DNA from: an uncultured Bacilli bacterium
GTDB taxonomy: Bacteria > Bacillota_I > Bacilli_A > RF39 > UBA660
NCBI GenBank assembly: GCA_964018915.1
Contig: CAXHRJ010000001.1
Location: 544,636 to 608,635, forward strand
DNA length: 64,000 nt
Direction: 5' to 3'
Of this stretch, positions 14,551 to 17,391 are shown piece after piece (within the stretch, counting starts at the first letter, position 1; each line of letters begins with the position of its first letter). The position numbers were made by a program, and so were the translations under genes. The notes beneath the pieces are model-generated. The model was not told the DNA's origin, did no database searches, and worked only from the letters and a program-made list of their open reading frames with translations.

Positions 14551-17391
14551 TTACTTAATTACAATATTTACTAATTTTTTAGGAATAACAATCATCTTAA
14601 CAACTTCATGTCCATCTAAATAAGTTTTAACGTTTTCAATAGATTGCGCAAGTTCTTTCATCTCTTCTTCTGTTGCACTTATACTTACTGTGATTTTTCC
14701 TCTTACTTTTCCATTTACTTGGACAACCATTTCATAGCTATCTTCTACTGTCTTTTCTTCTTCATAAGTTGGCCATGGTGAGATTGATAACATATCTCCC
14801 AATTGACAGTTTTCATTAATTTCCTCTGTAATATGTGGAGCAATTGGATTTAATAAGTGAATTAAAACACGTAAATCATCTTTTGTTATAGACTCTTCTT
14901 TTTCAATTTCATTTAAGAAAATCATAAGTGCTGATACAGCAGTATTATATTTTAAATTAGTTAAATCATTCGTAACTTTTTTAATGGTTTGATGTACTAA
15001 AGTTTCTTTTGTATATCCTGACTTATCATTTAATTTCTCTTGTAATCTCCAAATACGATCTAAAAACTTTTTACATCCCTTAAGTCCATTTGTAGACCAA
15101 GATGCTTCATGTTCATAGTCACCAATAAACATTTCATAAGTACGTAGAGCATCTGCCCCCATTTCCTCTACAATATCATCTGGATTAATAACGTTTCCTT
15201 TTGATTTACTCATTTTCTCGCCATTAGATCCTAGAATCATACCATGACTAACACGAGTCCATATCATTTCTTTGCTAGGAACAAGACCAATATTATATAA
15301 GAATTGTACCCAGAATCTAGCATATAGTAAATGTCTTGCAGTATGTTCCATACCACCATTATACCAATCTACTTTTTTCCAATATTTCATAGCATCCATA
15401 CCAGTAAATGCTTCATTATTATGAGAATCCATAAATCTTAAGAAATACCAACTAGATCCAGCCCAGTTAGGCATCGTATCTGTTTCACGTCTAGCAGTAC
15501 CACCACAACATGGACAAGTAGTATTTACCCAATCTGTAATATTAGCAAGTGGGCTTTCTCCATTTTCTGTTGGTTCATATTCTGCTACATCAGGTAATAA
15601 TAGTGGTAACTCATCTTCTTTCATTGGAACCCATCCACATTTTGGACAATCTATCATTGGAATTGGTTCTCCCCAGAATCTTTGTCTTGAGAAAATCCAA
15701 TCTCTCATCTTGTAGTTTACTTTCTTTTCTCCTACCTTTTTCTCTTCTAACCAAGCAATCATTTTATCAATTGCCTCTTGTTTATTTAAACCATTTAATT
15801 GTTCTGAATTAACATGAACACCATCATCTGTCATGGCACCTTCCCCAAATAAAGCACGAGTAGCATCATATTTATGGGCATTACTTGTTAAAGTATCAAT
15901 CAATTTATCTTTATCAATCCACATTACATCAGCTAAATCAATTTCTTCTTGGGCTCTATCTTCTTGTTTTAAACTGTTTAATTTACCAACAATCGTATGA
16001 CACTCAATATGACGATTAACATCTTTATGAGCTGCATAGAAATTATCAAAGTAGATAAATTCCATTTCAGAATCAATTGTAATATCTGTATAACCAGTTT
16101 CCTCTACTACTTCACGAATACCTGCTTCAATAGGAGTTTCTTCTCCTTCAATACCACCCATTACAAAGTTAATCCAATTAAACTTCTTATTATGTACACA
16201 TAAGTATTTATCCTCTGTTGGATGTTTTATTACCACATTAACAACTTTTCTATCTGTCATTGGTTTATCAGGACGAATAGCAGAATCACCAGTACCTACA
16301 AAGTTCTTTGCTATTACTTGAATAATAGGTAAATTAAATTTCTTAGCGAAATCATAATCCCTTTCATCATGAGAAGGAACTGCCATTATCGCACCTGTTC
16401 CATAACTTGATAAAACATAGTCACTAATATAGATTGGAATTTTCACTCCATTTACAGGGTTAATTGCATAAGCACCAGTGAATACACCAGTCTTCTCTTT
16501 ATTTAATTCTGTTCTTTCCATGTCATTTTTTAAAGCACAGGCTTTTTTATACTCTTCTACTTCAGCCTTTTTATCAGGTGTAGTAATCTCATCTACATAA
16601 GCATGTTCTGGTGCTAATACACAATAAGTTGCTCCATATAACGTATCACTTCTTGTTGTAAATACAGTAAATTCTTTATCATGTCCATCTACTTTAAAAT
16701 TAACATTAGCTCCTACCGATTTACCAATCCAATTGATTTGTCCTAATTTTACTTTCTCAGCAAAGTTCGTATCTTCTAATCCTTGTAATAAATCTTCAGC
16801 ATAATCTCCCATACGTAACATCCACTGTGATTTTTCCTTTTGAACAACTGGGGAACCACATCTTTCACATACTCCCCCTGCTGCATCTTCATTAGAAAGT
16901 ACAGATTTACAAGTTGGACACCAATTTACTGGAATTGTATCTTTATAAGCCATTCCATGTTTATAAAATTGTAGGAATTGCCACTGTGTCCATTTATAAT
17001 ATTCTGGATCTGTAGTTGAAAATTCTCTTGTCCAATCAAATGAAAAACCTAGTTTTTGCATTTGCCCTTTAAATGTTTTGATATTTTCACGTACTGCTTC
17101 TTTTGGATGAATATGATTTTTGATCGCATATTGTTCTGCTGGTGCACCAAAAGCATCCCACCCCATTGGATATAAAACATTCATTCCTTGCATTCTTTTC
17201 ATACGTGCAATTGCATCTTGTGCGGTATAACTTCTTACATGTCCAACATGTAATCCTGAACCTGATGGATAAGGGAACTCTACTAATACATAGTATGGTT
17301 CTTTCTCACTTCCATTTTTTGCTTCAAAAATCTTGTTATCTTCCCAATATTTTTGCCATTTCTCTTCTATTTTCTTAAAATCATAATGCAT
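14551..17391 (-). CDS. leuS: leucyl-tRNA synthetase with an inserted Nudix-hydrolase domain
   Basis: HVGH (LHVGHVRSY), KMSKS, CP1 editing-domain motifs ([13 protein letters not shown]). Length is 946 aa against ~805 aa for Bacillus LeuRS. The extra ~125 aa (residues ~378-500) contain a perfect Nudix box [23 protein letters not shown]. Confidence 0.95.
   Translation of the reverse strand: [946 protein letters not shown]

Follow-up and report, generated by a model that had tools for sequence, protein, structure and literature searches.

Can a leucyl-tRNA synthetase (LeuRS) carry a complete Nudix hydrolase within its editing domain, and if so what would the hydrolase be doing there? The question is raised by the leuS gene in a 64,000-nucleotide stretch of DNA, here called the window, from an uncultured Bacilli bacterium (assembly GCA_964018915.1, contig CAXHRJ010000001.1, positions 544,636 to 608,635 of the forward strand). 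A sequence-only reading of the window had proposed that a Nudix domain with a perfect Nudix box is embedded in this LeuRS, and had stated that no aminoacyl-tRNA synthetase (aaRS) with an internal Nudix module was known to have been described. We are almost certain that the architecture is real and that the inserted domain is a genuine Nudix domain maintained by selection.

The Nudix insert and its host enzyme

The leuS open reading frame (ORF) runs uninterrupted for 946 codons, with 0 internal stops (Table 1). Its product matches the Nudix family PF00293 with 34.4 bits as a full protein and with 37.1 bits when the insert is searched alone, the gathering cut-off being 21.1 bits. The proposed box was recovered as a strict match to Gx5Ex7REUxEExGU, and is the sole such box across the six frames of the window. 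The isolated module was modelled by AlphaFold2 with an alpha/beta/alpha Nudix fold, a pLDDT of 94.2 and a pTM of 0.87; in a model of the full-length protein (pLDDT 80.5) the secondary structure of the module is unchanged and its blocks have pLDDT values of 83-94. The models are consistent with a module that forms a lobe of its own and looks autonomous. On these points the sequence-only reading is borne out by profile search and structure prediction alike.

The position of the insert is not the one first proposed, which was between the end of the CP1 editing domain and the catalytic core. In a phmmer alignment to solved structures, residues 3-361 of the window protein correspond to residues 4-363 of the Thermus thermophilus LeuRS (1h3n; E = 1.4e-216) and the correspondence resumes at residue 518 with T. 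thermophilus residue 375, residues 362-517 replacing T. thermophilus residues 364-374. The PF13603 editing-domain model is interrupted in the same way, matching on both sides of the insert (Table 1). On these alignments the Nudix domain is nested within CP1, which is in turn an insertion in the Rossmann fold.

The host enzyme has the features of a bacterial LeuRS. In an NCBIfam scan the model TIGR00396 (leuS_bact) reaches 955.9 bits, where the cut-off is 548.4, matched as two stretches that flank the insert, and Pfam finds the class I catalytic domain (PF00133), PF13603 and the anticodon-binding domain (PF08264) besides PF00293. The HIGH and KMSKS signatures are invariant in 31 homologues, as are T245, T246, R247, D249 and T250 of the editing motif TTRSDT (residues 245-250) and H341, D342, R344 and D345 of the motif HDERD (residues 341-345), and editing by the window LeuRS is predicted from these intact CP1 motifs. 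The enzyme had been described as otherwise intact, with HVGH, KMSKS and a T-box leader. The motifs are indeed present and the T-box is real, but it does not lie directly ahead of leuS. In the same phmmer alignment the leucine-specific domain is nearly absent, residues 724-726 (about 15214-15222) facing T. thermophilus residues 582-637.

That an assembly join or a frameshift has put a separate nudix gene into leuS might be suspected from the fact that the insert equals an entire free-standing gene. The reading frame, however, is unbroken over both junctions and the LeuRS sequence picks up exactly at the end of the loop; the base composition of the insert (G+C 0.31-0.32) equals that of its flanks; and identical junctions recur in more than 120 protein clusters and, among independent assemblies, in 45 complete LeuRS ORFs. 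An artefact of this kind, which the earlier reading had itself named as a possible refutation, can for practical purposes be dismissed.

Table 1. Features of the leuS locus (window coordinates)
Feature	Position	Strand	Evidence
leuS coding sequence, 946 aa, bacterial-type LeuRS with nested Nudix domain	14551..17391	(-)	ORF, TIGR00396, Pfam
HIGH signature HVGH, residues 48-51	17239..17250	(-)	read from sequence; invariant, 31 homologues
KMSKS signature, residues 726-730	15202..15216	(-)	read from sequence; invariant, 31 homologues
CP1 editing domain, N-terminal part, residues ~220-361, with TTRSDT and HDERD	16309..16734	(-)	PF13603 positions 2-143, 211 bits
CP1 editing domain, C-terminal remainder, residues ~518-550	15742..15840	(-)	PF13603 positions 152-185; aligns from T. 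thermophilus LeuRS 375 on
Inserted module, residues 362-517, 156 aa, equal to a whole free-standing Nudix protein	15841..16308	(-)	alignments, AlphaFold2
NUDIX PF00293 match, residues 384-502	15886..16242	(-)	Pfam
Nudix box, residues 412-434 (G412-Y434), catalytic and metal-binding helix	16090..16158	(-)	strict regular expression
FYAAHKxVNR motif, residues 451-460, strand end and loop past the Nudix box	16012..16041	(-)	conservation, AlphaFold2 secondary structure
T-box leader, Leu (CUU) specifier, heading the small ORF-leuS operon	17799..17987	(-)	RF00230
Small hydrophobic ORF, 124-130 aa, between T-box and leuS	17391..17783	(-)	ORF

Distribution, variants and free-standing relatives

Whether the insertion is lineage-wide or confined to one strain was addressed by a module-profile scan of 185,579 species-representative genomes. 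Of the 237 stretches confirmed, the best 80 were retained; these represent 79 distinct loci, which were classified by tblastn and ORF analysis, and the locus counts given here refer to these best 80 of 237. Complete LeuRS ORFs, of 942-1118 codons, account for 45 of these loci and LeuRS genes clipped by contig ends for 8 more, all with the module at the same site. A further 24 loci hold free-standing ORFs, all in records labelled Candidatus Saccharibacteria and mostly of 156-206 codons (the exceptions being L050, with 237 codons, and L059, which is interrupted, with 53), and in 2 of the 79 the ORFs are of another architecture and have 281-284 codons. In a search with the full-length protein PF00293 was present in all of the best 120 LeuRS clusters, which are 64-91% identical to the window protein and either 934-952 aa or ~1100 aa long. 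The closest relative among the matches listed is P0160, at 91% identity; the window protein itself lies outside that collection. The insertion is lineage-wide.

The hosts are mostly metagenome-assembled genomes (MAGs) labelled 'uncultured Bacilli' from mouse, rabbit and other guts, a named example being Candidatus Onthocola stercoravium (Bacilli incertae sedis). Other records are labelled Tenericutes, Clostridia, Moraniibacteriota and Ca. Saccharimonas aalborgensis, and the labels Muribaculaceae, Burkholderiales and Bdellovibrionales seem to be mistakes of binning or labelling. A large clade of uncultured Bacilli, most of them gut-associated, has inherited the LeuRS-Nudix arrangement, which is also found in LeuRSs labelled as Clostridia and as phyla of the candidate phyla radiation. 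A protein search with the insert alone had given matches of 92-203 aa, mostly 157-168 aa and none of LeuRS size, from which the fusion could have been taken to be nearly unique or artefactual; that view was overturned by the genome scan and the full-length search. This word-indexed search, with its 157-aa query, missed more than 120 LeuRS-length clusters that hold the same domain, and a negative result from such a search with a domain-sized query can therefore not be read as an absence of fusions.

A profile hidden Markov model census over 1.84 billion cluster representatives gave 92 matches at E<=1e-30 and 341 at E<=1e-10. Long proteins in which the module lies near residues 370-530 make up most of the top 150, and all 8 of the long proteins that were checked are LeuRSs. 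Several LeuRSs, from the scan and the census, depart from the one-module plan. In three LeuRS genes of 1107-1118 codons (L011 3873-7226, L015 3879-7232 and L022 3903-7223) the first Nudix domain is followed at once by a second, divergent one whose box, GGSINEGETPYECALREVKEETGY, is intact. By Pfam, P0280, P0281, P0282 and P0423 are LeuRSs in which 2-3 Nudix domains occur, a second insertion site lying before CP1; P0303 combines Nudix with a Ham1/ITPase domain (residues 984-1167) and P0425 combines it with an alpha/beta-hydrolase (Ser_hydrolase) before CP1 (residues 258-442). The CP1 region of LeuRS thus seems to collect hydrolase domains in these lineages. A separate class is formed by the ORFs of 281-284 codons (L075 4728-5570 and L079 4698-5549), which stand alone inside long contigs and consist of the C-terminal part of a CP1-like domain plus Nudix; the HDxRD motif of CP1 has degenerated in them (PSHIQKD, PAHIQEH) and their second motif is altered (HFYAGYKGVNR). 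Proteins of ~280-310 aa with a partial CP1 and a NUDIX domain recur in the census (P0307, P0308, P0317, P0337 and P0348). An 1108-aa LeuRS-Nudix protein (L086 119-3442) has a further ~160 aa inserted after GAEVDFKIK, in the early part of CP1. Its contig is labelled Burkholderiales, yet is probably mis-binned, because the LeuRS it encodes is 69-72% identical to that of the window.

Over its whole length the module can be aligned with free-standing Nudix proteins of 157-168 aa (59-69% identity, 94-100% coverage), from about their third residue through to the C-terminus, and by this alignment a whole gene is in effect embedded in leuS. The free-standing nudix gene of Saccharibacteria immediately precedes thrS in 15 of the 24 loci, ~70-90 nt separating the two; a T-box was searched for ahead of nudix-thrS in Saccharibacteria and none was found. 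The order nudix, thrS, miaA is seen in the Saccharibacteria loci L002-L009 and L039-L070, several of which have a DHH-family gene and a tRNA gene just upstream. More distant free-standing relatives, at 35-43% identity, have varied neighbours: Nudix with a phosphoribosyltransferase (PRTase) and GNAT, CYTH with HD, or DHH/DHHA2. Two class II aaRS genes adjoin one of them, once only, and the idea of a consistent aaRS neighbourhood for these distant relatives was rejected on account of this variety. In L095-L097 the DHH/DHHA2 gene is a divergent neighbour.

In a neighbour-joining tree the free-standing Saccharibacteria copies form one clade beside the embedded clade of the window, nearly all of the more divergent branches being embedded copies. 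Being unrooted and without support values, this tree does not discriminate between a gene inserted into leuS and a domain escaped from it. Identity to the window protein is mosaic in L010, L012 and L016 (Nudix 78-81%, LeuRS body 45-64%) and mosaic in the reverse sense in L031 and L036 (body 73-86%, Nudix 69-70%). This pattern suggests that module or flank has been exchanged between lineages, or else that rates have been very unequal.

The leuS operon and the status of its product

The T-box leader scores 135.3 bits against RF00230 (cut-off 93), and the cmscan alignment places GAA-CUU-G in the specifier loop, CUU, a leucine codon, being read as the specifier. The small ORF that separates the leader from leuS has a stop codon that overlaps the leuS ATG, and it is kept directly upstream of Nudix-bearing leuS genes in at least 24 loci, at 26-87% identity. 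A Pfam scan of this ORF assigned it to no family, the best match, to UbiA, being below cut-off at 17.6 bits. From its sequence and setting it looks like a conserved membrane protein that is co-transcribed with leuS. A T-box ahead of a Nudix-bearing leuS is also found in the syntenic locus discussed below (L001) and in 8 of 14 other diverse loci tested. Elsewhere in the window are an ORF of 2181 aa (38169-44714, minus strand), a class B RNase P RNA (55769-56111, minus strand; 286.8 bits) and an L21 leader (50874-50940, minus strand; 37.7 bits), the two RNA elements being consistent with a Bacillota host.

An accessory paralogue, that is a specialised second leuS (for example for inhibitor resistance or stress) with a canonical copy elsewhere, would be an alternative account of the gene whatever the substrate of its Nudix domain. 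Two observations lend themselves to it. The NCBI product name is merely 'class I tRNA ligase family protein', and the L001 copy (4897-7741 in GCA_011262095.1), which is syntenic with the whole leuS gene of the window, has 8 frameshifting indels of 1-2 nt between codons 87 and 479; PK, GH31 and the 3' half of leuS on the same contig are without indels. When projected on the reading frame of the window the L001 substitutions still give a dN/dS of 0.04-0.125, as in a functional gene under strong purifying selection. A long-decayed pseudogene is ruled out by these values, and because they are still so low, either the assembly is in error at the indels or these arose very recently. An accessory role is further opposed by the Leu-specifier T-box operon, which is conserved in many lineages, by the synthetic and editing motifs, all of which are intact, by the presence of the module in all of the nearest 120 LeuRS homologues, and by the inclusion among the hosts of small-genome bacteria such as Saccharibacteria and Moraniibacteriota. 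An accessory paralogue is accordingly unlikely; the leucine T-box, the intact motifs, the module in every close homologue and the small-genome hosts all indicate that the window gene is probably the housekeeping LeuRS of the cell.

Activity, substrate and known systems

Conservation of the module was assessed in 80 copies, 54 of them embedded and 26 not, with identities down to ~40%. The Nudix-box residues G412, G413, E415, E418, R426, E427, E430, E431 and G433 are 95-97% conserved, and the motif FYAAHKxVNR is 91-99% conserved in embedded and free copies alike. The dN/dS of the module (NG86) ranges from 0.11 to 0.29 over ten relatives. With the two closest relatives, the module gives 0.165-0.184 and the LeuRS body 0.04-0.11. 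Selection on the module is purifying and somewhat relaxed relative to the LeuRS core. On this conservation and selection, together with the fold models, the module is very probably catalytically active, and it is predicted to be a Mg2+-dependent hydrolase of a nucleoside-diphosphate-X compound.

Which compound this may be is suggested less sharply. A Foldseek search with the module gave the Enterococcus faecalis structure 2azw first, then the Ap4A hydrolases CT771 and Aquifex aq_158, and then RppH, ADP-ribose pyrophosphatase and MutT1, while the NCBIfam matches, all weak, are to YtkD, RppH, NudB and MutT. Within the Nudix clan, motifs of the X-loop downstream of the Nudix box mark substrate classes, with a tyrosine in ApnA hydrolases (traced to Dunn et al., 1999), a proline in ADP-ribose diphosphatases and SQPWPFPQS in NADH diphosphatases (PMC5389931). 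The secondary structure of the model and this concept of the X-loop make it likely that FYAAHKxVNR is an X-loop specificity determinant. Its Y452 is 94% conserved and lies 18 residues past the Nudix box, as a candidate counterpart of Tyr87 in human Ap4A hydrolase. Residues 435-460 contain no proline at all, unlike the X-loop of ADP-ribose diphosphatases, and SQPWPFPQS is absent from the insert. The structural neighbours and the tyrosine are compatible with an ApnA hydrolase and do not discriminate.

Cellular Ap4A and Ap4N have been described as stemming chiefly from aaRSs, with Nudix enzymes forming one class of the hydrolases that act on them (PMC13627108). Our best guess, which falls somewhat short of being a probable one, is that the physiological substrates are dinucleoside polyphosphates (Ap4A, Ap3A, Ap4N). 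On this reading the LeuRS is leucine-regulated and has a complete Nudix pyrophosphohydrolase of ~156 aa in a surface loop of CP1. The dinucleotides (ApnN) arise when the aminoacyl-adenylate of an aaRS reacts with a second nucleoside triphosphate (NTP), and the fused domain would degrade this by-product, or alarmone, in step with the abundance of LeuRS. Removal would operate through co-localisation and co-expression and not through channelling. Nudix enzymes cleave pyrophosphate bonds, whereas leucyl-adenylate (Leu-AMP) is an acyl-phosphate, and its direct hydrolysis by the module is for that reason unlikely. A cis mechanism that depends on exact geometry is also argued against, because copy number and insertion site vary among relatives and free-standing homologues exist.

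The main rival is that the module is a house-cleaning enzyme carried as cargo, a general pyrophosphatase of NTPs or nucleoside-diphosphate-X compounds (like MutT, NudI or YtkD) that is mechanistically separate from leucylation; in a small genome, capture in a permissive loop of an essential and well-expressed protein would ensure its expression and retention. This is a real possibility, somewhat less likely than ApnN hydrolysis. Several findings speak for it. The free-standing homologues indicate that the domain works alone, and the variation in copies (from 1 to 3) and in site (in or before CP1) indicates that exact geometry is not needed. One LeuRS also carries Ham1/ITPase, a classic house-cleaning NTPase, and another the alpha/beta-hydrolase. 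The variation, the free-standing form and the Ham1 co-fusion suit house-cleaning almost as well as they suit an ApnN hydrolase. The weak NCBIfam matches and the nucleotide or polyphosphate contexts of the distant relatives (CYTH, HD, DHH/DHHA2, PRTase) point in the same direction. Random capture, on the other hand, would sit oddly with the finding that the long proteins checked for this Nudix family are all LeuRSs (8 of 8) and that the class of 280-310 aa is CP1 plus Nudix. A connection with aaRSs is hinted at, too, by the position of the free form next to thrS, and specificity residues of the MutT type were not identified.

Two further explanations are both improbable, the second a shade more so. 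The module could be directed at RNA, either in removing 5' pyrophosphate or Np4A- and NAD-type caps in the manner of RppH, or in acting on LeuRS-bound tRNA. The top Foldseek matches include structures of E. coli RppH, with Ap4A-bound RppH among them, RppH and YtkD are among the weak NCBIfam matches, and CP1 of LeuRS contacts the acceptor end of tRNA. Alternatively the Nudix fold may have a non-catalytic role, as a ligand sensor, interaction module or brace that regulates LeuRS, comparable to domains of the NrtR and CFIm25 types. Non-catalytic Nudix domains typically lose the catalytic set (PMC5389931, and general knowledge). In the 80 divergent copies, by contrast, the full set (E418, R426, E427, E430 and E431) is 96-97% conserved.

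If dinucleoside polyphosphates of the Ap4A type are indeed degraded by the module, the module would physically connect the enzymes producing the alarmone with one that removes it. A broader proposal, which we regard as doubtful, is that LeuRS has acquired a third hydrolytic site in a broad set of small-genome bacteria, the Nudix domain around CP1 destroying ApnN or another adenylate-derived by-product at source, and that the CP1 region serves as a docking platform for nucleotide-sanitising hydrolases (one to three Nudix domains, Ham1/ITPase, alpha/beta-hydrolase). The third site, if real, would couple levels of alarmone or by-product directly to leucine and to the charging status of tRNA-Leu, and the platform, if real, would make LeuRS a hub of nucleotide quality control. 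Were the module house-cleaning cargo, it would still show reduced genomes bundling functions onto essential proteins. What is of interest under any of these readings is an apparently active Nudix domain in the editing domain of a probably essential enzyme, under purifying selection in dozens of uncultured gut species. There is also a consequence for annotation, in that leuS can look missing in these MAGs because of the generic NCBI name.

Full-text literature searches yielded no account of LeuRS, or of any other aaRS, with a Nudix domain, in keeping with what the sequence-only reading had said. A 2017 review of the Nudix clan never mentions tRNA or synthetases (PMC5389931), and Nudix goes unmentioned in a paper on unusual aaRS architectures. 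The architecture is nevertheless visible in the precomputed Pfam annotations (PF00293) of public proteins. LeuRS-Nudix is, in the literature found, undescribed, though already tagged PF00293 by pipelines that run Pfam.

Comparison with known systems places the protein as follows. The canonical bacterial LeuRSs (T. thermophilus 1h3n, E. coli 4aq7) share with it the Rossmann core, HIGH and KMSKS, the T-rich and HDxRD motifs of CP1 and the anticodon-binding and C-terminal domains, and T-box control is typical in Bacillota. Unlike them, the window LeuRS has a 156-aa Nudix domain in place of a CP1 loop of ~11 residues, an insert found in none of the solved LeuRS structures, and its leucine-specific domain is short relative to that of T. 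thermophilus. The free-standing Saccharibacteria proteins (P0001, P0011, P0045) have the same Nudix box and FYAAHKxVNR, and their termini coincide with the boundaries of the insert; they are encoded by separate genes, usually directly upstream of thrS, and are annotated merely as 'MutT (NUDIX family)'. The Nudix ApnA hydrolases of known structure (CT771 4mpo, A. aeolicus 3i7u, T. thermophilus Ndx1 1vc8 and M. tuberculosis Rv2985 9cxx) are 14-21% identical to the module and, unlike it, free-standing; other Nudix subfamilies score almost equally. The E. faecalis MutT/Nudix protein 2azw, at 19% identity, is a structural-genomics entry whose name states no function, and is hence uninformative on substrate.

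Added domains are well known in eukaryotic aaRSs; to our knowledge catalytic domains nested within bacterial synthetases are rare. The isoleucine--tRNA ligase with an N-acetyltransferase domain (NF040702) is likewise a bacterial class Ia synthetase with an extra domain that is a small-molecule enzyme. It differs in that the synthetase is another one, the domain is of the GNAT family and the position is not the same, and the window protein is no member of that family (84.5 bits against a cut-off of 1999).

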